Of a stretch of 64,000 nt of DNA, positions 18,419 through 30,798 are shown in pieces. Position numbers and translations under genes: made by a program. The notes beneath the pieces were generated by a model. The model made no database searches. It was not told where the DNA came from and saw only the letters and a list, made by a program, of their open reading frames with translations. The DNA is from an uncultured Candidatus Poseidoniales archaeon (GTDB lineage Archaea; Thermoplasmatota; Poseidoniia; Poseidoniales; Thalassarchaeaceae): positions 66,468-130,467 of the forward strand of contig CACELO010000002.1 in NCBI GenBank assembly GCA_902560445.1. Reading direction: 5' to 3'. Within the stretch, counting starts at the first letter, position 1, and each line of letters starts with the position of its first letter.

Positions 18419-20566
18419 TCAGTCTCTCCGACTAGCCATCGCTGCACCTAGAAGAGCCAGAGCACCAAGTATTGGACCAAATCCTGGCAATACAGGCGGA
18501 GTAGCTGATGATTCTGACGAATACAGGGAAGCCCAGGTATCGTAAAACTCCATCTTGTCAATCTCCTCACCATCATAGTCGCTCCATTCAACAGACACCT
18601 CATCTCCTGGCGAGACCAGTCCGTCCCCATCGTGATCAGTGTAAGTAATCGTAACACCTTCCGCTTCTCCACCGGTTAGTGGGATGCTGAATTCGTTTGT
18701 GCAAGTACTTAGATCCGGCTGAACCATTTGGTCTTGATCCTCGTCATAAAACTCCTCACAGTCGCTGAGGAAGTGAACTTCGAAGTCGGTGATCGGAGCG
18801 TTGAGTGTCTGATTCTCCGCGACAAATCCGGTAGCGTCATTTCGCTCCATACCATCACCATCATCATCACTGTCGTCGTCATCATGGTCATGGTGCCTGT
18901 CAGCATCATCGTGAGTATGATCGGCCCCATCATCATGGTCATGATGATAGTCTCCATCTCCATGGTGGTGGTGACCTGCATCTTCTTCTGTTTCATGATG
19001 GTCGCCATCATCACTGTCGTCGTCATCACTGTCGTCGTCATCAGATAACATGTCCACAATGCCATCGATGAAGCACTGCATCTCGTCGATGTCGATTAGG
19101 TCGCTTCCATCGTAGTCGCAATCTTCGAACAGGATTGAGACCTCGTCGTAATCCAGTTCGGGGTTTGTTGCATTGGAATCCCAGGAATCCTGGAACTCTT
19201 GGAAACTCATGTATCCATCGTCATTTGCATCTACAGATTCCATAGCCTCTTCTGGAGTAGTGGAGCCATCGCCATCATCCTCTGAACCTGACCACTCGTC
19301 TCCGTCCGCAGAGTGCTCGAATTCCTCGCTCTGTCCGAAGTCGTCAGTGCAGTGCCAGTCTGAGTCATGGTATTCACAGTAATACCACCAATTTTCCCAG
19401 TCCTCATCATCCTGAGATATCTTGCACCACCAACGAGAATCCTCTCCTGCATCAGTAGCATCAGAGTAACCCTCCCATTCGCAGTAGCCGTCATGATAAC
19501 TGTCCCAACTGATATGATTGCCATCATCATGGTGGCCGTCGTCATCGTACTCATCGGAACCGTCCTCGCAATTTTCATAGCCGTCATTCACCCAATCCCA
19601 AGGAATCCAAGTATTCCCACCATCGCATGGGAACATCTCTTCTGAGTCGTCATCACCGTGGTCATCGTGGTCGTTGACATCGTTGAATATCTCAGAATCA
19701 AACCAAACTGGAATCGAGGTTCTTGGAAGTGTGTCATCCACCTCGATGACTATTGCATCTCCCCACATCACCTCATACGTTAGTGATGAGGTCGCAGAGC
19801 CGTTGTCGCTTTCTATGCTCATGGACATAAGGTCTTGATTCTGATCTATGTGAATGGTCATAGTAATCTCTGCTCCACCCTCCGTATACTCCATTGTCAT
19901 TGTCTGGGTTTCCATATCATCACTCATAGTGATTGTAATGACTGCGTCTTCTGGTAAGTCACCATCATCATCATCATCATCCCCATCATCATCACCTCCA
20001 TCATTGAAGAGTCCGGCCTGTTCTGCGATTACCTCCAAAACATTGGGGGTTGCATCTCGAGTTTGATAGGAGCCGGTTGTTGCCTCTCCTTGAACCATCA
20101 TTCCGCCCACCAACAGGTGGACATTGACAACCTCGCCGACCTGCACATGAGTATATTCCATTTGCAATAACCCTGCAATTGAAATTGAGTTGTGAACATA
20201 GACTGAGTCATTGTCAAGATCCGCCATTACAATGTCCTCTATCTCGACATCCATCTGCATCCCCAAATCTTGGTTCCACTCGCTCGATGAAATCGACTGA
20301 GAGTATCCTGCCTTCGGACTCTCTTCTAGCATATCTTCGATACTTCCCATATCAGTCATGGCCTCGATGAAAGTCTCCGTGGTGGCTATGTAAATACAGT
20401 CTCCAACTAACTCGGCCGTGGCGTTTTCTTCGTAATTGGCTGCATTCTCGTCCATACATCCTAAGACATCGTCAACAAGTTCTTCCAAATCTTCACCAGA
20501 AAGGCAACCTGCCATTGGAGTAGCTATCAAAATTAGGCTAGCGAGTAAGGCATACGCGCGATTCAT
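18419..20566 (-). CDS. extremely acidic, His/Asp-rich surface protein with an N-terminal lipobox and a C-terminal PGF-CTERM
   Basis: Signal/lipobox 'LILIATPMAGCLSG'. EF-hand loop 'DANDDGYMSFQE'. His/Asp tract. C-terminus 'LPGFGPILGALALLGAAMASRRD'. Confidence 0.8.
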   Translation of the reverse strand: MNRAYALLASLILIATPMAGCLSGEDLEELVDDVLGCMDENAANYEENATAELVGDCIYIATTETFIEAMTDMGSIEDMLEESPKAGYSQSISSSEWNQDLGMQMDVEIEDIVMADLDNDSVYVHNSISIAGLLQMEYTHVQVGEVVNVHLLVGGMMVQGEATTGSYQTRDATPNVLEVIAEQAGLFNDGGDDDGDDDDDDGDLPEDAVITITMSDDMETQTMTMEYTEGGAEITMTIHIDQNQDLMSMSIESDNGSATSSLTYEVMWGDAIVIEVDDTLPRTSIPVWFDSEIFNDVNDHDDHGDDDSEEMFPCDGGNTWIPWDWVNDGYENCEDGSDEYDDDGHHDDGNHISWDSYHDGYCEWEGYSDATDAGEDSRWWCKISQDDEDWENWWYYCEYHDSDWHCTDDFGQSEEFEHSADGDEWSGSEDDGDGSTTPEEAMESVDANDDGYMSFQEFQDSWDSNATNPELDYDEVSILFEDCDYDGSDLIDIDEMQCFIDGIVDMLSDDDDSDDDDSDDGDHHETEEDAGHHHHGDGDYHHDHDDGADHTHDDADRHHDHDDDDSDDDGDGMERNDATGFVAENQTLNAPITDFEVHFLSDCEEFYDEDQDQMVQPDLSTCTNEFSIPLTGGEAEGVTITYTDHDGDGLVSPGDEVSVEWSDYDGEEIDKMEFYDTWASLYSSESSATPPVLPGFGPILGALALLGAAMASRRD
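18851..19045 (-). repeat. GAT/GAC/CAT-rich low-complexity coding tract (Asp/His run)
   Basis: Encodes 'SDDDDSDDDDSDDGDHHETEEDAGHHHHGDGDYHHDHDDGADHTHDDADRHHDHDDDDSDDDGDG'. It generates spurious ORFs in other frames and on the other strand. Confidence 0.8.
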
Positions 20567-21833: not shown

Positions 21834-22721
21834 TCAATTTCGAGTCCAAGATGGAATGAATACATCTCTCCAATTCGGAGTTGCAAGATATTCTTCCTCG
21901 GTAAAGAATGACCTTGCATAAATCGAAATAAAGTCGATAATTAGAACAACAATGTAGATAATAATCAGGTATGCAAATACCTTGTCATATTGTAAAAATC
22001 TAAGATACAGATCGATGTAATATCCAATTCCTCCTGCACCGACAATGCCGATTACAGTACCAGAACGGAAATTATATTCAAACATGAATATCGAGTGAGA
22101 AATTAGATCATTTGCGGCTTCAGGAATAACTACGTTAACTGCTACTTCCCAACGACTCAAGCCTATTGCATTCGCCGCATCCAAAGGAGTTTTTGTCAGA
22201 CCCTCAATTGATTCATACTGTAATTTTCCAAGATATCCCACTGTGTAAATTGTCATTGCCAGAACGCCAGCTAATGGACCTAAGCCGACTAGAATAACCA
22301 AGAAAATAGCCCAAATCAATGCTGGAAGACTCCTACATGCTGAGATAAGAAAGCGGGTAGGGTAAGATATCCATCGCGGGCTTAAATTTCTTGAAGCCAT
22401 GATTGACAAAGGTAATGTTACAACCATACCAAATACAGTTGCAACAAACGCAATCTTTAGCGTCTCAATAACTCCCTTCCAAGCGGTTGAGCAAGTGAAA
22501 TCGAAAATTGGTTGGGCAGTACAAACAGGATATGTTTGAGGCTCTAGAACGCTCATATCTGGTGGCCAAAGAGACTGAAAGAAGAATCTGACAAGATTAT
22601 CTGGGCCACCTGCTAATCTACCCCAGTCGCCAACCATTCCGTTTAGAATTACAATTGCAAGCAAAAGGAGAATCCATAGCACCAGAGCCATCTTTTCGCC
22701 ATCTACTGCTATCTTCTTCAT
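21834..22721 (-). CDS. ABC importer permease, PhnE family
   Basis: 295 aa, 6 TM. It has the binding-protein-dependent transport motif region 'IEGLTKTPLDAANAIGLSRWEVAVNVVIPEA' and a 4-nt overlap with the ATPase gene. Confidence 0.8.
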   Translation of the reverse strand: MKKIAVDGEKMALVLWILLLLAIVILNGMVGDWGRLAGGPDNLVRFFFQSLWPPDMSVLEPQTYPVCTAQPIFDFTCSTAWKGVIETLKIAFVATVFGMVVTLPLSIMASRNLSPRWISYPTRFLISACRSLPALIWAIFLVILVGLGPLAGVLAMTIYTVGYLGKLQYESIEGLTKTPLDAANAIGLSRWEVAVNVVIPEAANDLISHSIFMFEYNFRSGTVIGIVGAGGIGYYIDLYLRFLQYDKVFAYLIIIYIVVLIIDFISIYARSFFTEEEYLATPNWRDVFIPSWTRN

Positions 22722-23428
22722 GAATTCAACACCACAGCTTTTGGTTTGGTAATGAATGGATTCACTCTTCCATCATCAATAACTAGGAGGCGATTTGCCA
22801 TTGACTTGGCTCTAGAAATATCATGCTCGACAACGATTAATGCTGAATTATTATCTTTCACGTAGCTTGTCACGCTTTCCAAAACCATAGCCAATGTTTC
22901 TTCGTCTAATTCACTCAAAAATTCATCTGCTAGAATTAATCTTGGTCGCTGAGCCAATGTTCTGGCCGTTGCGACTCTTCTCTGTTGGCCACCGGACAAC
23001 CTCCTAATTGGTTCTCTTGACTTTTCCTTAAGCCCCATTTGTTGAATTGCATTGGTAACTCGTTCCTTTCTTTCCTTCCTATCATTAGTTCCAGCTCGAG
23101 CACCCAACATTACATTGTGCCTAACACTTGCATGACGAACTAAACCCAATTTTTGTGGAATATACCCTAGTGCGCCACGGAGAGGTTTCGACGGAATTTC
23201 TGCACCACACACTGTGATCGAACCGGAAATTGGACGTATTAGTCCCGCAATTGTACCAAGTAAAGTTGACTTCCCGATACCAGAAGGGCCCGCTATGGCC
23301 ACTATTTCACCAGGGAATATTTCGAGATTGGGAATACTGACTAAGGGTGATTCAGTTTCATATCCGATTACTATATCTTCGAGGGAGACAATCGGATTTT
23401 CTGAACCCATACCCTCGGACAACTCCAA
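22718..23428 (-). CDS. ABC importer ATP-binding protein, PhnC family
   Basis: Walker A 'GPSGIGKST', signature 'LSGGQQRRVATART', Walker B 'ILADEFLSELD'. Confidence 0.85.
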   Translation of the reverse strand: MELSEGMGSENPIVSLEDIVIGYETESPLVSIPNLEIFPGEIVAIAGPSGIGKSTLLGTIAGLIRPISGSITVCGAEIPSKPLRGALGYIPQKLGLVRHASVRHNVMLGARAGTNDRKERKERVTNAIQQMGLKEKSREPIRRLSGGQQRRVATARTLAQRPRLILADEFLSELDEETLAMVLESVTSYVKDNNSALIVVEHDISRAKSMANRLLVIDDGRVNPFITKPKAVVLNS

Positions 23429-23441
23429 AGCCCCCTTGTAA

Positions 23442-23457
23442 TTTAGGCGGCCCTAAA
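23442..23457. promoter_or_regulatory. 16-bp palindrome TTTAGGCGGCCCTAAA (copy 1 of 4); candidate operator
   Basis: An inverted repeat 14 nt 5' of the phnC-like ATG. ATATAT (23461-23466) lies just upstream on the transcribed strand. Confidence 0.55.
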
Positions 23458-23514
23458 CCAATATATGGTATTGATGGGTTTAGTGATAACAAAATATCTT
23501 ACGAATCAGATAAC

Positions 23515-25611
23515 TTATATCGATTCTTGCAAGAATGAATAGGCTCCGGGTACAACACTTACCACCTCAGATAGCAAGCCAAGATGTTCTTGTGAATTTG
23601 TTCTAACAATCCCTGTACCATCGAGTATATTGTTTAGAATTTCATCACCACAGATTTCCCTATTATTATCTGAATTTACCTTGTGTGTAGAAATATCGTA
23701 ACAACCAGTATATGTTCCAAATCCGGGTCTAGAATAATTCTCTAGATACATCTGATAATTCAAAGTAACTAAGGCGTTGAGAATAGCGGCTCTACTTCTA
23801 GAATCAAGAGTCGAAGGGTTGTACATTACAGATTCACTTGGAGACACACCGACTTGACCCAAAGATAGGTACTGGTCAATTTCCATGCACCAATCTTGAT
23901 TTTCTTGTTCTTCTTGATTACAATTTTCTTCTAGTGCATCTTCTCCGACGAATGCTATTTCACTTACATTTTCGGATAGGCAGCTAATCGCACCTACCTC
24001 TCCCGCAGGGGTGCTTGAAGATGAAAGAAGAGATGATTGATTTCCAAAATAGCCGCGTATTGTTTCGATAATCTCGACATTTTCTTGATTAGGCGAATAA
24101 TACTCATTTTCAATTAGATAATGAATAGGAAGAATTGTGTGAATTGGAGATTGAGAACCGGTGAAGCAAGACACTCTTCCCTGCATCATTGCAAATGGAT
24201 CGGTGCTAGATTCATTGTCTGAACTTGCGGTAGCCAATTCTCCTAAATTTGAGACTAAGGCCATAGAATACCGCTGAGTCAATTGATCTTTGTTTTGTAT
24301 GGCTCCTAGAACTGATAGATTATGTAATTTCCATCCAATTAACGAAGAAGATGAAGGAAGAAATCCAATATGAGCCTCGCCTGTTTCAATTGATTCAATC
24401 ATTTCTGATTGAGAATTAACATAGTGAATTGAAACATTAATTCCTAATTCTATGGATAAAAATTCGGCTAAATGAATCGGGTCACTATTGGTTTCTAATT
24501 TTGATTCATCTAGTTCAAATGCAACAATTAATTCTTCTATTGTTATTGTTATTGATTGACTTCCATTGTCGGTATAATAAGCTGAAATCCCAGGGATATT
24601 CGAAACCAGAGGCGTGTATATACCAAGATGAGATTCAGAATCTGTAGAAACTACACCCTTTGTCCCTAGTGTGTTGTAGAGAATTTCGCTGTAATCCTCG
24701 TTTGAACTAAAGTCAATTAGAAAATCCGTAAGTTCACTGATTACTAAATCATCATCAAAATTAGAATGAGTCATGAAAACATCACTGGGGGTCTTAGCGA
24801 ATGGTTCGAGAGAAACATATCTCGAGGCATCCAAACACCATTCTTCGACATTATTTCCATTTTCTGTGGTGCAGTATTGAGAGGCCGTGTTATCCTTCGC
24901 AAATGCAACCTCACCGGAACCATCTGAAAGACATCTTAGAGCCCCTGAAAATCCATAGTACTGTGTGCCAGGTTCCGGAATTGATGAGTTTTCGTTAAAG
25001 AATTGAAAAATTGTATTTCTTAGAGATTCGATATCATTTGGATCGCCAATTACATTTGCATACCCCAATCCAAGGAAGAATCCCATTGGAACCATCATTC
25101 CTGTTGAGTGTAACCAACCCGTATGGCAGGAAGTTTTGCCTTGCATCAGTGAGAATGGATTTGTTAGCGGATCATCGTCAAAATATGCTTCTGCGATATC
25201 GCTATCGTCGAGAACCCAAGCGAGAGAATTGTAGTATGTCCTGCCGTCTGATTTTTGGTCCGCTGCAAAAGCCTGCAAACCGTATTGATTCCACCCAATC
25301 CAAGCAGCACCGCTATCCATTAGAGCGATGTCGGCATTTCCAAACCTTAGTGCCTCGAGTATCGCTGCTTCTGAATCAACGGCATATATTGTAAAATCAA
25401 ATCTACTGTTTTGGGTAAGAATTTCTGCCAGCATCTCAGGATTAGTTTCTGACTCAAGCATACCTTCGGACACTTCGAATGCCAGAACAATGGGAGTTCT
25501 TGTTTGATTATTTGATTCTTCAGAATCACTCAAGCAACCAGAGAGAGTGCTAGAAAGCAGGATAATGGTATAACAAATGACCAGTATTTTGTAATGTCTT
25601 TTTGTCGGCAT
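23515..25611 (-). CDS. bilobal transferrin-like/PhnD-superfamily substrate-binding lipoprotein (two tandem PBP-type lobes)
   Basis: Lipobox 'STLSGCLSD'. Lobe 1 (about aa 40-345) and lobe 2 (about aa 350-698) are paralogous to each other and to the 28476..29546 protein. Lobe 1 carries 'TSCHTGWLHSTGMMVPMG' and 'YYGFSGALRCLSDGSGEVAFAKD'. Confidence 0.8.
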   Translation of the reverse strand: MPTKRHYKILVICYTIILLSSTLSGCLSDSEESNNQTRTPIVLAFEVSEGMLESETNPEMLAEILTQNSRFDFTIYAVDSEAAILEALRFGNADIALMDSGAAWIGWNQYGLQAFAADQKSDGRTYYNSLAWVLDDSDIAEAYFDDDPLTNPFSLMQGKTSCHTGWLHSTGMMVPMGFFLGLGYANVIGDPNDIESLRNTIFQFFNENSSIPEPGTQYYGFSGALRCLSDGSGEVAFAKDNTASQYCTTENGNNVEEWCLDASRYVSLEPFAKTPSDVFMTHSNFDDDLVISELTDFLIDFSSNEDYSEILYNTLGTKGVVSTDSESHLGIYTPLVSNIPGISAYYTDNGSQSITITIEELIVAFELDESKLETNSDPIHLAEFLSIELGINVSIHYVNSQSEMIESIETGEAHIGFLPSSSSLIGWKLHNLSVLGAIQNKDQLTQRYSMALVSNLGELATASSDNESSTDPFAMMQGRVSCFTGSQSPIHTILPIHYLIENEYYSPNQENVEIIETIRGYFGNQSSLLSSSSTPAGEVGAISCLSENVSEIAFVGEDALEENCNQEEQENQDWCMEIDQYLSLGQVGVSPSESVMYNPSTLDSRSRAAILNALVTLNYQMYLENYSRPGFGTYTGCYDISTHKVNSDNNREICGDEILNNILDGTGIVRTNSQEHLGLLSEVVSVVPGAYSFLQESI

Positions 25612-25908
25612 TGATCAAAACCTCTGTCTACCCGACTCTTGCTCAGGATGCTGATTTTTCAATGTTAGTCCTGAAGGAAATAACATAATTTTCAGTTTAA
25701 TCCTGGTGTTGACAGGGGAACCTGTGATGTGTACAGATGCTCCTATGTGACGCTGTTAGAGTCCCCCGTGCCAACGGGTATTGCCAATGCTATTGGCTAA
25801 GGTTGTTGACAGGGGGCCTATTGCGTTCGAATACGAAATTCGAATGTAGGTGTCAGGCGCTGATACGCCCCCTGCCAACTGTTTTGTCTTATCGACTGGT
25901 TACGTACT

Positions 25909-27144
25909 TCATTGGAGAGTTCCAATGTCTTCGGCTGTGATGCCAAATGCATCCCAGACTGGCTGTAGATAGGAGCGGATATCCGCTTCGTAATCTGCTG
26001 TTGCATCTCCATCATTCTTCAGATCGAAGATTTCGAGAATCTTGTCATTGTAGTAATTAGCATACCACCCAAATGCCTCGCACTCCTCCTCTGACATACC
26101 CTCATGCTGAGCGTGTGTCACTGAATTATAGCATCCTGTGAATTCCTCTCCACTCGGATCGTTTGGAGAAGTGTAGTTCTCCAGATACATGTATGCCTCG
26201 CAGGATGCCTGTGAGCTATCCGATGAGACCGTGTGAGATACCATGTTGTAGCAGATCGAAGTGTACTCAGCGACATATGCCTCGATTACCCTGTAGAAGG
26301 CGTGACCCTCTGCCTGGTGCTTGTCGTAGTCTGCAGTATCTCCAGCAGCTAGGTCGTCCGTCATCTTTGATGCGTACCTCACAGAAGCCTGTGAGTAGAC
26401 GATTACAATATTCTTCAGAACCTCGTCGCGTGCGTCGACTACTCCTTGCATATCTTCATTCTGAAGTGCAGTCAAGCCAGCGTTCATTGCGGCTAGAGTA
26501 GCGATGTTTGTAGCATCACCAGTCCCAAAGTTGCCCCCTCTCTTGGCAGCGGTTGCATATGGCCCACATCCATCGTAATCATGGTTGGAATCGTCAGGAC
26601 CATGGTAGAAAGCCCATCCTTCGTCCCAAGCGTGTTGAGCGTCATCGGCCCCCCAGTTTCCTGCTTCCGCCTTGATGATTGCAGCGTTGAGTTCATGGAT
26701 TGCATAAGCAGTCATCACACCATTCTGGATTCCCTTTTCGACTGCTTGATCTCTGACTGTGTCAGATTCTCCCTCGAAAGGACCTGTGCCATCAATAGCC
26801 GCAGATACGAAGTCATTCCATGAGCCGTCTGCATCATAGTATGCGTCGTAGGCGTGGTTCTTGCCGGAAGCATCTGCGAAGCCCATGAGGGTCCTGTAGG
26901 AACCGTCGGACTTCTCCGCGTGCTTTCCATCATCATAGATATCCTTCACACCGTCCCAATCGTATGCACCAGAGAGGTCCTTAATATCGCAGACATCACC
27001 CATTAACATTCGGTGATTATCAACGTTGGAAGCATACGTGTATCCTCCATCTGCGTCATCAAGATCTACATCATCTCCTGCACAACCGGCAATCGCACTG
27101 CCGATTAATACTAAAGTCATCATTAAAGTCATTGTTCTATTCAT
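25909..27144 (-). CDS. acidic lipoprotein of unknown function (mostly helical, Cys-pair modules near the C-terminus)
   Basis: Signal/lipobox 'LIGSAIAGCAGDD'. 411 aa. Two operator-like palindromes lie directly 5' of the gene. Confidence 0.7.
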   Translation of the reverse strand: MNRTMTLMMTLVLIGSAIAGCAGDDVDLDDADGGYTYASNVDNHRMLMGDVCDIKDLSGAYDWDGVKDIYDDGKHAEKSDGSYRTLMGFADASGKNHAYDAYYDADGSWNDFVSAAIDGTGPFEGESDTVRDQAVEKGIQNGVMTAYAIHELNAAIIKAEAGNWGADDAQHAWDEGWAFYHGPDDSNHDYDGCGPYATAAKRGGNFGTGDATNIATLAAMNAGLTALQNEDMQGVVDARDEVLKNIVIVYSQASVRYASKMTDDLAAGDTADYDKHQAEGHAFYRVIEAYVAEYTSICYNMVSHTVSSDSSQASCEAYMYLENYTSPNDPSGEEFTGCYNSVTHAQHEGMSEEECEAFGWYANYYNDKILEIFDLKNDGDATADYEADIRSYLQPVWDAFGITAEDIGTLQ

Positions 27145-27146
27145 AG

Positions 27147-27162
27147 TTTAGGTCTCCCTAAA
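27147..27162. promoter_or_regulatory. 16-bp palindrome TTTAGGTCTCCCTAAA (copy 2 of 4); candidate operator
   Basis: Begins 2 nt 5' of the ATG (27144) of the 411-aa lipoprotein gene. Confidence 0.55.
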
Positions 27163-27190
27163 CCGGCCGGATAGCGAATCGTATATGAAA

Positions 27191-27206
27191 TTTAGGGCGC
27201 CCTAAA
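27191..27206. promoter_or_regulatory. 16-bp perfect palindrome TTTAGGGCGCCCTAAA (copy 3 of 4); candidate operator
   Basis: Lies in the divergent intergenic region 27145-27299 and abuts the A/T-rich 'GTATATGAAA' (27181-27190). Confidence 0.55.
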
Positions 27207-27299
27207 CTCTTGAATCGTGCGTGGAAAATTGTCATATAACTGATGAGCAGTCAATTGAATTGGAGACGAGGTTTTTTTACTCATTTCTATTCGTAAATA

Positions 27300-27905
27300 T
27301 TGGTTTTAGTTACAAGGAGAGGATTAGTCTTGAGGAATTTGGGGCATAGATTGGGGGCTTCTGGTACCAAAATGGAAAATACCATTGACGGGCTTATGAA
27401 TTCATTAGAACAGGTAAATAATAGAAAATTTAAGTATTGGGAATTTGATATTAGAGAATCTTTGGATGGAATAATTTTTGTCTTTCATGATGATCAAATA
27501 CTTGTAGATGGAGAATTAATCGAAACCGCCAAATTGAATTTCTCTGAAATAATGAAAGCGGGTGAGGATTTGGGGGTAAAGATACCTACATTTTCAGAAG
27601 TTGTTGAAATATTGGGTGACCGGAAAGAAGATGTCATGGTTGAAGTGAAAGAATTGAGAACTGATGCCGCTAGAAGAACCGTAATCACTGCGATTTCTAG
27701 TAAACCAAATTGGAAACTGATGGCTACTCCAACTAGATTCTTGGAATCTTTTCCTAGTGAATCCAGGGAGTATTGGGAGCGATTTACTCGAGATTTGGAC
27801 GTAGAATTCGTTAGAGTTGGCCGCCATAAATTGGACCTTTTCAGCGCTTCTAAATCCTATTTTAGGTGGAAATTTGCTCGATTTAAATGGTTTTTCGGGA
27901 TTTAA
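27300..27905 (+). CDS. glycerophosphodiester phosphodiesterase (GDPD)-like protein
   Basis: 'LGHRLGASGTKMENTIDG...YWEFDIRESLDGIIFVFHDD' matches the GDPD N-terminal HR..EN...E.D...DG..V..HD pattern. It is short (201 aa). Confidence 0.6.
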   Translation: MVLVTRRGLVLRNLGHRLGASGTKMENTIDGLMNSLEQVNNRKFKYWEFDIRESLDGIIFVFHDDQILVDGELIETAKLNFSEIMKAGEDLGVKIPTFSEVVEILGDRKEDVMVEVKELRTDAARRTVITAISSKPNWKLMATPTRFLESFPSESREYWERFTRDLDVEFVRVGRHKLDLFSASKSYFRWKFARFKWFFGI

Positions 27906-27968
27906 TAATGATGACTATTTTGAATTAATTTTTCCTACAATTGATTATGAACCCCATTACTCACCCTA

Positions 27969-28403
27969 ATGTTGAAGAAAATGGTCAGTACTGATGAGTT
28001 AATTGTGGCGCTAAATAATGCTCTCGCTTGGGAATTAAGGGCTATTGCAATGTATGCTCACTATTCCGCATACGTTTCAGGGATTCATAGATTACAACTT
28101 TCGGTATTCTTCAATAATGAAGTAACAGAATCAATTGCGCATGCTTCAACCGTAAGATCCGCTATAGTGAAATTACACGGTAAGGCCACTACGGAGAGGG
28201 CAGAAGACCCTATTTTACACTCAATGGACTTCCGAGATATGTTGGAAGAGGCACACAAAACTGAGTTGAAAGCTAGCGAGACATATGGAGAAATTTTACC
28301 AATGGTTGAGCAAATTGGGGATAGCGAACTTTTTGATGCCCTGGAAGTTATTTACTTTGATGAACTGAGATCTGTAGAAGAATTGAGAATGATGCTTGGT
28401 TGA
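27969..28403 (+). CDS. ferritin-like four-helix-bundle protein (bacterioferritin/Dps-like superfamily)
   Basis: 144 aa. 'ALNNALAWELRAIAMYAHYS', 'EVTESIAHASTVRSAIVKLHG', 'LEEAHKTELKA' and 'FDELRSVEE' resemble the E / E..H / E / E..H di-iron pattern. The spacing of the first E..H is one residue off. Confidence 0.55.
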   Translation: MLKKMVSTDELIVALNNALAWELRAIAMYAHYSAYVSGIHRLQLSVFFNNEVTESIAHASTVRSAIVKLHGKATTERAEDPILHSMDFRDMLEEAHKTELKASETYGEILPMVEQIGDSELFDALEVIYFDELRSVEELRMMLG

Positions 28404-28429
28404 GATTTAAACATACTATTTACCGTTAG

Positions 28430-28445
28430 TTTAGGGTGCCCTAAA
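28430..28445. promoter_or_regulatory. 16-bp palindrome TTTAGGGTGCCCTAAA (copy 4 of 4); candidate operator
   Basis: 31 nt 5' of the ATG at 28476. TTTAAA (28406-28411) lies upstream. Confidence 0.55.
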
Positions 28446-28475
28446 CATTATCAAACAAACCGATTTCGGAGATGT

Positions 28476-29546
28476 ATGGAAAAAACTAGTTGGGCTGGTT
28501 GGGCCAAAGCTAACAAAGCACTTTTGCTCGCTGGATTAGTGCTATCTGCGACCGTATTGTATCTCATTTTCGACATTAATTACGAACAATGTGATGATCA
28601 AGATAACTGTATTACAATCGCTTTTGAGGTACAAGATGACTATTTGTATTTTGGAAAAGAGAACCCTCAGCACTTGGCAGACAAAATGAGTGCTCTGACT
28701 GGTATGGATGTTGAAATAATGCCTGTATCGAATTCCGGCGCGATAATCGAGGCTATCAATAATGGCAATGCGGATATTGGATTTGTAGATGGAGCGGCCG
28801 CTTGGCTTGCATGGGAAGTTTACGATTTGGACGTGCTAGCGGCAGAGTGGAAATTTGATCAAAGGACGTACTATAATGCGGCAGCCTGGGTGAAAAAGGA
28901 CTCTGAAATTGCAGACGCGTATCTAGATGATGATCCAGATACAGACCCATTTGCTTTAATGAATGGAAAAACGTCTTGCCATACAGGATGGCTGAAAAGT
29001 GCTGGGATGTTGATTCCAATGGGTTACTTGATTGGAAATGGGTATGCCGAGGTGCGTGGAGATCCTGAAGAAATTACTTCACTACGAGATACAGTGACGC
29101 ATTTCTTCAACGAAGATTCAAGCATACCTGACGGAGGTACTCAATATTCCGGATATAAGGGGGCATTGAAGTGTATGATGACTGATCGCGGAGACGTTGC
29201 TTTAGTCAAGGATACAGCATATATGCTCTACTGTGACGAAAATGAGGACGGAATTGCAGATGGTCCTGATTGGTGTTTGGATAGAGATGAGCTCGTTATG
29301 CTCGAGTCATTTGGTCGAGCACCGAGTCACCCCGCTTTGTATAATCCCTCAGCTATGAATAACGAAACGGTCGAACTAATTCAAAATGCATTGGTGGATA
29401 TGAATAATGATGAAGAAGGTACAAAGATACTCTCCGATGTCTTAAACACTGAAGGAATGGTTGTTACGAATGCTACTGCTCACCTAGGCACATATGGTGC
29501 GGCTGTAGAGAACGTCCCTGGAATACAAGCATTTTTTGAGGATTGA
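28476..29546 (+). CDS. monolobal transferrin-like substrate-binding protein (PhnD superfamily) with N-terminal membrane anchor/signal
   Basis: Motifs 'NADIGFVDGAAAW', 'RTYYNAAAWVKKDS', 'GKTSCHTGWLKSAGMLIPMG', 'YSGYKGALKCMMTDRGDVALVKD' and 'APSHPAL' align with transferrin N-lobe ligand and anion-site motifs (recalled from the human serotransferrin sequence). Confidence 0.8.
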   Translation: MEKTSWAGWAKANKALLLAGLVLSATVLYLIFDINYEQCDDQDNCITIAFEVQDDYLYFGKENPQHLADKMSALTGMDVEIMPVSNSGAIIEAINNGNADIGFVDGAAAWLAWEVYDLDVLAAEWKFDQRTYYNAAAWVKKDSEIADAYLDDDPDTDPFALMNGKTSCHTGWLKSAGMLIPMGYLIGNGYAEVRGDPEEITSLRDTVTHFFNEDSSIPDGGTQYSGYKGALKCMMTDRGDVALVKDTAYMLYCDENEDGIADGPDWCLDRDELVMLESFGRAPSHPALYNPSAMNNETVELIQNALVDMNNDEEGTKILSDVLNTEGMVVTNATAHLGTYGAAVENVPGIQAFFED

Positions 29547-29592
29547 TCACACAATCCCAACTAGCGTACTGCCACAACGTTGAGGTTTCATA

Positions 29593-30798
29593 ATGAGAGT
29601 GACCATCACTATCCTAATTTTATTGATAATATCTCTATTTTCTGGATGTTTTTCAGACGATGGAGATGATTTTGATTGGACTGATCCCCAAACAACAGAG
29701 TGCAATTTAGGCAATAACCTAACTTGTACTAATTTGTTTCCGGGAGCTGGTACTCCTCATCACTCAGAAGTAAATCCTCAAACTAATGAATTATGGATAA
29801 TTTATCTCAGTGGAATGGTAAAAATTTGGCAAGATGATGAACTAATACAAGCTGGTGACTTAAGTGAAATTGTAAATAGATGCCATACAGAACAAGGATT
29901 GCTTGGATTTGCATTCGATGCCAACTATAATTCTTCCAAACAACTATTGTTATCATATGTGGAAAAAGGCAGCTGCGAAGGGGCGAATAATGCAGACCTC
30001 GTTCTTGCTTCAGTTGTTGTTACTGATGATGATATGATAAATTTGGACTCGTTAATCGTCTTGAAAACCGTAGAACAACCATACAGGAATCATAACGGGG
30101 GGCATTTACATGGTTTGGGTAATGGAGAATACCTCTGGGGAATTGGAGACGGAGGTGGAGCTAACGACCCAGAAAAGAATGGGCAGAATTCTGAAAATTT
30201 ATTGGGCACTATTGTTTACTTCCAATACTCAAATGGCGATGTTAATCCGATAATGGATTCAGAAAATGGAAACCCCTACATCTTGCACTATGGTTTGCGA
30301 AATCCATGGAAATTCGACGTGGGCCCTAATGAGGAACTATGGATTGCTGATGTCGGACAAAATTGTTGGGAAGAAATTAATTTGGTAAATTTGGTAAACA
30401 AATCAAACCTTGGGTGGTCAGAAAAAGAAGGATTCAGTGATTTTTCCGAAGGTGGAAGTTGTGAAGGAGGAGTTCTATCTGAAAATAATGAATTTACAGA
30501 CCCTGTCTTTGTCTATGGTCACAATAACGGAAATTGTTCCATAACCGGTGGCTTTTGGACTGAGAATACAATAATCTCAGACCAAGGTGGTTATCTGTTT
30601 GGAGACTTTTGTTCTGGTTCGCTATGGATTCTTTCCAATGGTGTAAATCACACATGGAAAGAGACCTATCTTGGTAACGTGGGGGGACTAATTGTAGGGT
30701 TTGGAGAAGGGGCTAATGGTGAGCTTCTGGTCTTTTTCTGGACTGGAGAAATCATACAAATCACTCAATCCGCTGCCGCCGATAGCAATATCGTGTGA
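29593..30798 (+). CDS. beta-propeller lipoprotein, PQQ-dependent glucose/sorbosone dehydrogenase-like
   Basis: Lipobox 'ISLFSGCFSDD'. 'EQGLLGFAFD', 'YRNHNGGHL', 'GDGGGANDP', 'YGLRNPWKFD' and 'ADVGQNCWEEIN' match the GSDH-family pattern. Confidence 0.7.
   Translation: MRVTITILILLIISLFSGCFSDDGDDFDWTDPQTTECNLGNNLTCTNLFPGAGTPHHSEVNPQTNELWIIYLSGMVKIWQDDELIQAGDLSEIVNRCHTEQGLLGFAFDANYNSSKQLLLSYVEKGSCEGANNADLVLASVVVTDDDMINLDSLIVLKTVEQPYRNHNGGHLHGLGNGEYLWGIGDGGGANDPEKNGQNSENLLGTIVYFQYSNGDVNPIMDSENGNPYILHYGLRNPWKFDVGPNEELWIADVGQNCWEEINLVNLVNKSNLGWSEKEGFSDFSEGGSCEGGVLSENNEFTDPVFVYGHNNGNCSITGGFWTENTIISDQGGYLFGDFCSGSLWILSNGVNHTWKETYLGNVGGLIVGFGEGANGELLVFFWTGEIIQITQSAAADSNIV

Follow-up and report, generated by a model that had tools for sequence, protein, structure and literature searches.

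The EGF-like, LDL-receptor class A (LDLa) and thrombospondin type 3 (TSP3) families are small disulfide-stabilized extracellular repeats that are shuffled among surface proteins. Choline/cell-wall-binding repeats (CW_binding_1), which are bacterial and about 20 residues long, contain neither Cys nor helix, and the His-rich loop of ZnuA and the polyhistidine-triad (Pht) lipoproteins that feed AdcAII act as metal-relay elements. Transferrins are characterized by the iron ligands Asp, Tyr, Tyr and His together with a Thr/Arg anion site. FEA1 and ISIP2a, the phytotransferrins, are described as binding ferric iron or concentrating it on the surface of algal cells and as functional transferrin analogues (PMC7676907; PMC7972479), and a paper on the crystallization of FEA1 exists (PMC8098128). 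A literature search found no publication tying Poseidoniales to FEA1 or phytotransferrin.

Here we describe a small Cys-pair repeat in a 64-kb stretch of Poseidoniales DNA (the window, meaning the whole stretch that was analyzed). The repeat occurs as two tandem units in a 411-aa FEA1-related lipoprotein, whose gene is 100% identical along its length to a Candidatus Thalassarchaeum metagenome-assembled genome (marine group IIb, MGIIb; Poseidoniales), and as a single unit in the 698-aa transferrin-type binding protein encoded beside it. We consider it somewhat probable (roughly 0.55) that the shared element is a shuffled, lineage-specific repeat whose role would be that of a generic accessory arm. 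The two hosts and their units are located as follows.

25909..27144, minus strand: host 1, 411-aa lipoprotein of the FEA1/phytotransferrin family with lipobox IAGC (Pfam and NCBIfam profiles)
26044..26271, minus strand: two-unit Cys-pair repeat array in the FEA1-related lipoprotein, aa 292-367 (unit hidden Markov model (HMM), break in the NCBIfam match, AlphaFold)
nt 26164-26271, minus strand: FEA1 unit 1, aa 292-327, Cys298-Cys315 (unit HMM, 58.9 bits)
nt 26044-26151, minus strand: FEA1 unit 2, aa 332-367, Cys338-Cys355 (unit HMM, 55.7 bits)
23515..25611, minus strand: host 2, 698-aa two-lobed substrate-binding lipoprotein of the transferrin/PhnD family (Pfam PF12974 and PF00405)
23644..23757, minus strand: one-unit insertion YQMYLENYSRPGFGTYTGCYDISTHKVNSDNNREICGD in the C-lobe of the 698-aa protein, aa 619-656, Cys637-Cys654 (unit HMM, 42.7 bits)

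Comparison with described families

The repeat shares with EGF-like, LDLa and TSP3 units a length of about 35-40 residues, conserved Cys, single or tandem occurrence in variable copy number, and insertion at termini, linkers and loops of unrelated secreted proteins, and some of its hosts contain LDLa-like and EF-hand motifs as well. It differs in its one Cys pair, its restriction, as far as traced, to one archaeal order and its own signature of C-Y-N-x-x-[ST]-H with an aromatic strand. Searched at E values up to 10, Pfam contains nothing that recognizes the module (the best E, 0.014, lies far below gathering scores) and NCBIfam nothing relevant to it; a profile search of PDB sequences gave a best E of 1.4, and a structure search of the PDB gave no fold match for either the two-unit model or the model of the 411-aa protein. 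These failed profile and fold tests place the module outside the EGF-like, LDLa and TSP3 families. It is classed here as a new family among the small Cys-stapled extracellular repeats that shuffle between proteins.

Two further comparisons bear on what such units might do. With CW_binding_1 repeats the module has in common short tandem units rich in Tyr and Trp, a mainly beta (predicted) structure and a variable copy number suggestive of binding by avidity; the two differ in length, Cys, helix and host domain, and no sequence or profile similarity connects them. Like the ZnuA loop and the Pht proteins, the module repeats a motif on surface lipoproteins whose genes are linked to that of a metal ATP-binding cassette (ABC) binding protein, and in the ZnuA-type proteins of Poseidoniales the units lie inside a His/Asp-rich insert. 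It differs from these relay elements in having no HxxHxH triad, in its one conserved His per unit, and in its presence also in transporter-unlinked proteins, and a metal role for the module itself is putative.

The 411-aa host was called unknown in an earlier reading of this DNA from its letters alone (the original prediction); it is in fact related to FEA1, and already carries the NCBI name 'FEA1-related lipoprotein'. Its N-terminal 290 residues match both family profiles above their cut-offs: Pfam PF07692 (Fea1) covers residues 13-266 with an E value of 3.2e-19 and 69.7 bits (cut-off 25), and NCBIfam NF038033 (FEA1-related lipoprotein, FEA1_rel_lipo) reaches 358.2 bits (cut-off 250). The best NF038033 stretch stops at residue 295, reported as two residues short of the first module Cys, and picks up again past the array, which identifies the module as an insertion relative to the FEA1 family model. 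Since the family profiles are without the module and the match is broken at this residue, the array is a Poseidoniales addition to the FEA1 family. The N-terminus, MNRTMTLMMTLVLIGSAIAG-C, reads by eye as a signal peptide with a lipobox Cys, and the A-G-C is invariant in 29 orthologues. A full-length search with the 411-aa query returned only variants 98-100% identical to it. For the helical FEA1 domain, modeled at a predicted local distance difference test (pLDDT) of about 90, Foldseek finds no PDB structure (best E 0.54), and a sequence search finds no PDB chain.

The 698-aa host resembles transferrin/PhnD-type binding proteins in its two lobes, each of which matches both PF12974 (85.9 bits) and PF00405 (73.9 bits), with two stretches for each family, and its nearest solved sequences are lactoferrins and transferrins (PDB sequence search, E 4e-21). 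It differs in being the lipoprotein of an ABC importer, in a degenerate C-lobe anion site and in the inserted unit. HMMER alignments show the SCHTG anion-site motif kept in the N-lobe with His at the expected Arg position, and G-F-S-G standing where lactoferrin has G-Y-S-G; the C-lobe motif has degenerated to SCFTGSQSPIH. These departures suggest a non-canonical set of iron ligands under the usual transferrin residue numbering.

Homology of the units in the two lipoproteins

The FEA1 units read C-Y-N-x-x-[ST]-H-x10-C, and the binding-protein unit is preceded by the same MYLENY(S/T)xP strand; its insertion consists of the entrance strand MYLENYS, a linker, and then CYDISTH...C. The peptides quoted in the original prediction are present on the minus strand, with coordinates right to a few bases. 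The Cys pair that it described also stands. It gave the spacing as 8-10 residues between the His and the second Cys; all three units in the window are exactly C-x16-C. The pattern CY[ND]..[ST]H.{6,12}C has three matches in the six-frame translation of the window, all of them the known units, and the unit HMM has no match in the window beyond the two hosts.

Three lines of comparison connect the hosts. BLASTP of the full 411-aa protein against the 698-aa protein returns one significant segment, the module, with an E value of 2e-4 under compositional adjustment (24 identities in 71 columns), and the excised segments give 3e-7. An independent profile was made of FEA1-type units of other species only, leaving out the window sequence and all binding-protein units. 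Among 651 open reading frames of the window, its sole match besides the FEA1 gene is the binding-protein unit (E 7e-4). The insertion is absent, by alignment, at the matching site of the N-lobe of the 698-aa protein and of a third protein of the window, which serves as a reference for the insertion boundaries:

28476..29546, plus strand: 356-aa single-lobe transferrin-like paralogue, no module (Pfam)

A single-lobe binding protein of another Poseidoniales genome (P0133) has three units where the 698-aa protein has its insertion, two canonical (CYNMVSH and CYNSGTH) followed by one of the binding-protein type. This intermediate architecture settles the homology of the FEA1 and binding-protein units.

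Compositional bias had been raised with the original prediction. In favor of a resemblance by chance or composition, both exported proteins are acidic and rich in Asn, Ser and Thr, and the common stretch is short (24 of 71 positions identical). The similarity survives compositional adjustment, the Cys spacing is the same in all units, the independent profile finds the binding-protein unit, P0133 supplies an intermediate, and the motif is kept in hundreds of units throughout the order. Chance resemblance is thus extremely improbable, and compositional bias was rejected on the adjusted BLASTP and on the profile match among the 651 reading frames. From BLASTP, the independent profile and the joint retention of the two Cys, the original claim of a small module with a conserved Cys pair common to both proteins is borne out, and the similarity is one of homology, not of composition.

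Anatomy and predicted fold of the repeat

A scan that took one genome per species yielded 73 Poseidoniales loci, where the module recurs in tandem about every 34 aa. The number of profile-scoring units is 2-9 in FEA1 orthologues (counts of 2, 6, 8 or 9) and 1-3 in binding proteins; all bilobal binding proteins at the 73 loci have exactly one. The consensus of the unit, over about 34-40 residues, is xFTG-C-Y-N/D-x-V-[ST]-H-x9-11-C-E-A-[YF]-x-[WY]-x-E-N-Y. When 143 units are aligned, the C, Y, H and C are invariant and the N nearly so (D in the binding-protein type), [ST] precedes the His, and the region past the second Cys reads x-[AGS]-[YFW]-x-[WYF]-x-x-N-Y; Asp18 and Glu25 are frequent. The string MYLENY(S/T).P....(F/Y)TG is composed of the aromatic strand of one unit, a linker and the first strand of the next unit. 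The binding-protein unit retains this entrance strand and has its own terminal strand swapped for a host helix, GDEILNNIL.

Both Cys are present in 369 of 379 distinct units and neither in the remaining 10, which are one orthologous unit of one clade; no unit has a single Cys, and the number of non-lipobox Cys is even in each host. This strict pairing makes it likely that a disulfide joins Cys(i) to Cys(i+17) and so ties strand 1 to the helix. The Cys-less unit is found in FEA1 orthologues of about 550 aa (L049, L050, L052, L054, L056, L057 and L058), with GAYNSVTH...T for GCYNSVSH...C; it still has the Y, N, H and aromatic strand. In the first unit of this clade, Met replaces the His.

AlphaFold predicts the 411-aa protein, from an alignment of 35 sequences, to be mostly helical (pLDDT 80.6; predicted template-modeling score (pTM) 0.79), with the array at pLDDT 72-81 between helix 270-294 and helix 364-372. 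Structure prediction of the module, which the original prediction had suggested, gave a confident model: taken alone, with 40 unit pairs as the alignment, the tandem reaches pLDDT 92.6 and pTM 0.74. Each modeled unit opens with a strand ending in C-Y-N. A two-residue bridge past the His comes next, then a helix of four residues that stops at the second Cys, then an aromatic strand of eight residues, and a turn of 8 residues leads on to the next unit's first strand. This succession of elements, rather than coordinates, leads us to infer that adjacent units may zip into one ribbon.

Distribution, hosts and mobility

The original prediction had also suggested searching protein collections with an HMM of the units. 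At E values up to 1e-3, the array profile matches 479 of 5.8 billion proteins; the unit profile has 46 matches among 1.84 billion cluster representatives, of which 37 show the canonical motif and the other 9 are apparently spurious partial matches. Every cluster member that has an organism name belongs to Poseidoniales. By these named members and the scan of one genome per species, the module family appears specific to Poseidoniales (marine group II archaea). A single-sequence query found no relative on viral contigs.

The hosts identified with Pfam are FEA1 proteins, transferrin-like binding proteins, ZnuA-type proteins, proteins with fasciclin and cupredoxin domains (some also with LDLa), and large acidic EF-hand lipoproteins. 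In the ZnuA-type hosts the units lie within very long His/Asp-rich inserts, and in the fasciclin-cupredoxin hosts they are N-terminal, as in the 6-unit array of the fasciclin protein P0239, or between FAS1 domains; one gene of the latter kind is placed among the housekeeping genes for topoisomerase VI, aconitase and TFIIB. In three ZnuA-type proteins (P0257, P0258 and P0273), inserts several hundred residues long break up the ZnuA fold; they combine HDDH-type runs and EF-hand-like sequence with canonical units and with a His/Asp-substituted variant, which reads C-H-D-x-S-x-H...C-E-A-A-G-H-x-W-M-E. The module is thus a rare repeat that has not been described before, is limited to one lineage as far as traced, and occurs in exported proteins of several unrelated kinds. 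Ubiquity among unrelated secreted proteins had been named as a finding that would speak against a link between the two window proteins; the hosts are indeed unrelated, but the module is rare.

Evidence for movement between genes comes from a further surface protein of the window and its relative.

18419-20566, minus strand: 715-aa acidic surface protein with EF-hand, LDLa-like and PGF-CTERM-like motifs, no module

The orthologue of this protein in another species (L025:10657-13185) has a two-unit cassette inserted past the LDLa-like motif. The cassette is colinear with residues 298-360 of the window-type FEA1 over 63 aa at about 60% identity, and so corresponds to the whole tandem, whereas FEA1 units 1 and 2 are only about 33% identical to each other. 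These observations are direct evidence for the movement of cassettes between genes. The 715-aa protein has at its N-terminus, right behind the lipobox, an unrelated Cys-pair motif, GCMDENAANYEENATAELVGDC (C-x20-C), which is also present in P0269, P0272 and P0241.

Role of the module

In the mechanism that we favor, the module would be an autonomous extracellular repeat whose units multiply in tandem and pass from gene to gene as cassettes. A two-unit cassette would have been inserted ahead of the C-terminal helices of an FEA1-type iron lipoprotein, and a one-unit cassette in a late C-lobe loop of the transferrin-type binding protein of the same gene cluster, so that the likeness of the two proteins would reflect common descent of a shuffled module and not a device private to the pair. 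The resulting arm would be stabilized by oxidation, possibly N-glycosylated, and would decorate envelope proteins, mostly metal-handling ones. The arm would have a generic function, such as retention at the surface, capture of a partner or ligand by avidity, or protection, and its copy number would be free to vary. A generic arm is favored because of the varied hosts and positions, the free copy number, the mobility of cassettes and the pattern of N-x-S/T sequons. In FEA1 orthologues the arrays contain 124 sequons compared with 97 +/- 9 in shuffled sequences, and the helical body 12 compared with 80 +/- 9; the excess in the arrays is largely compositional, and the robust part of the pattern is the depletion outside them. 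The LENY(S/T) string contributes a sequon to each host, N323-Y-T to the 411-aa protein and N625-Y-S to the 698-aa protein. N323-Y-T, inside the module, is the sole sequon of the mature 411-aa protein.

Several considerations weigh against a generic arm. All recognized host families have a metal-binding domain (Fe, Fe, Zn/Mn, Cu and Ca, respectively), which fits better with a metal role than with a purely generic one. Tyr8, Asn/Asp9 and His13 are near-invariant polar or aromatic residues. Nor do the arrays occupy a stalk position between anchor and domain; they are found in loops, at distal termini and in the His-rich loop of ZnuA. The 10 double losses of Cys amount to about one evolutionary event, and the counts of Cys and of sequons are drawn from related sequences, which overstates their independence. 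The disulfide, glycosylation and surface exposure are inferred.

The original prediction envisaged a specific interaction or hand-off between the two window proteins, and this part of it does not hold up. At seven loci (L016, L017, L018, L021, L024, L025 and L048) FEA1 carries units, and the cluster's sole binding-protein gene is of the single-lobe type and free of them; the copy number is 2-9 in FEA1 and a constant 1 in bilobal binding proteins; and ZnuA-type, fasciclin-cupredoxin and EF-hand hosts also have the module, some of them encoded outside the operon. These observations argue against a dedicated FEA1-binding-protein device. The module is not a dedicated link of the two proteins; a looser common role is compatible with the data. 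For the same reasons we regard as unlikely a docking role, in which units of different proteins would associate into one surface complex, for instance by strand addition at an open ribbon edge, or tether to a common partner such as an S-layer. Docking would suit the occurrence of the module in adjacent genes of one conserved cluster, and the host helix in place of the terminal aromatic strand of the binding-protein unit may leave an unsatisfied edge. Variable copy number is likewise typical of avidity modules, but the seven mismatched loci, the hosts encoded apart from any uptake operon and the lack of co-variation in copy number between FEA1 and bilobal binding proteins all run counter to docking.

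A tentative alternative, less probable than the generic arm and ranking above docking, is that the array is a metal-capture antenna. The unit, or the interface between units, would form a weak site for Fe3+, Zn2+ or Cu2+ from Tyr8, Asn/Asp9, His13 and acidic loop residues, and the array would concentrate ions beside the high-affinity site of its host and pass them over. The recognized hosts (FEA1, transferrin-like, ZnuA, cupredoxin and EF-hand/LDLa proteins) fit this idea, as does the ability of FEA1 and ISIP2a to bind or concentrate ferric iron at the cell surface (PMC7676907). The units of ZnuA hosts are within an expanded His/Asp-rich insert, and the C-H-D-x-S-x-H variant there swaps conserved residues for better ligands; Y to H and N to D are, however, conservative changes that are expected in a His/Asp-rich context. 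The unit abutting the transferrin-like host reads Y-D...H where others read Y-N...H, but this Asp9 marks one orthologous unit lineage and not repeated tuning. Tyr and His are invariant in one unit alignment, although in the wider set about 20 of about 390 units have the His replaced, and the first unit of a whole FEA1 clade is retained with Met in its place. There is only one conserved His per 34 residues, Tyr8 and Asn9 are adjacent in a predicted strand, so that by the DSSP assignment their side chains would be expected on opposite faces, and the units of fasciclin-cupredoxin hosts are distant from the copper domain. The fuller proposal of a new marine group II antenna domain, in which 1-9 disulfide-stapled units would collect Fe3+, Zn2+ or Cu2+ and feed FEA1-like, transferrin-like and ZnuA-like hosts with ligands tuned to the host metal (Y-N-H, Y-D-H and H-D-H), is slightly more doubtful still. 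Asp9 was rejected as weak evidence of ligand tuning: it belongs to a single orthologous unit abutting the host helix, and the upstream units of multi-unit binding proteins have Asn. With modest confidence, then, we rank the generic arm ahead of the metal antenna, and the antenna ahead of docking.

Gene cluster and its significance

Two genes lie downstream of the hosts and in the same orientation.

22718-23428, minus strand: PhnC-like ATPase, no module (profiles)
21834-22721, minus strand: PhnE-type permease, no module (profiles)

Upstream of the FEA1 gene and divergent from it are genes for GDPD-like and ferritin-like proteins, the single-lobe transferrin-like paralogue and a GSDH-like lipoprotein. 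The order FEA1-like, bilobal binding protein, ATPase and permease is kept in 30 of the 73 loci, and in 3 further loci the binding protein is upstream instead. This conserved order makes both hosts members of one gene cluster. The original view of the two proteins as one set stands to this extent, that they are co-directional neighbors in a conserved order. A wider conserved neighborhood of FEA1, at 21834-30798 in the window and at other loci, comprises genes for a GSDH-like lipoprotein, single-lobe transferrin-like, ferritin-like and GDPD-like proteins, FEA1, the bilobal binding protein, the ATPase, the permease and a GpsA-like protein.

The still uncultured Poseidoniales belong to the most abundant archaea in surface ocean waters. 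The combination of an FEA1/phytotransferrin-type lipoprotein, a two-lobed transferrin-family binding protein and a PhnCE-type ABC importer is a candidate high-affinity iron system of a major heterotroph, and it brings relatives of both eukaryotic iron carriers together as neighbors within a single prokaryotic operon. The unannotated domain family marks envelope proteins of the lineage, nearly all of them metal-related, and naming the repeat would improve the annotation of hundreds of 'hypothetical' metagenome proteins. The tandem is a small, confidently modeled target of 76 residues for the question of modular metal capture or surface display. Should the module prove to be only structural decoration, it would still be a clean case of cassette shuffling between neighboring archaeal genes.

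Intergenic hairpins

The 297-bp gap between the FEA1-like and binding-protein genes contains two similar long hairpins (25715-25880, minus strand), GTTGGCAGGGGG...CCCCCTGTCAAC and GTTGGCACGGGGG...TTCCCCTGTCAAC, with a palindrome, TTCGAATTTCGTATTCGAA, inside the first. They are predicted to fold as RNA at -74 kcal/mol (z = -5.15 relative to shuffled sequences), and Rfam has no family for them. The hairpins may act as a terminator or attenuator, or as an mRNA stabilizer, that sets the ratio of FEA1 to transporter. The stem motif recurs 30-60 nt past the FEA1 stop codon in 11 loci of different species.

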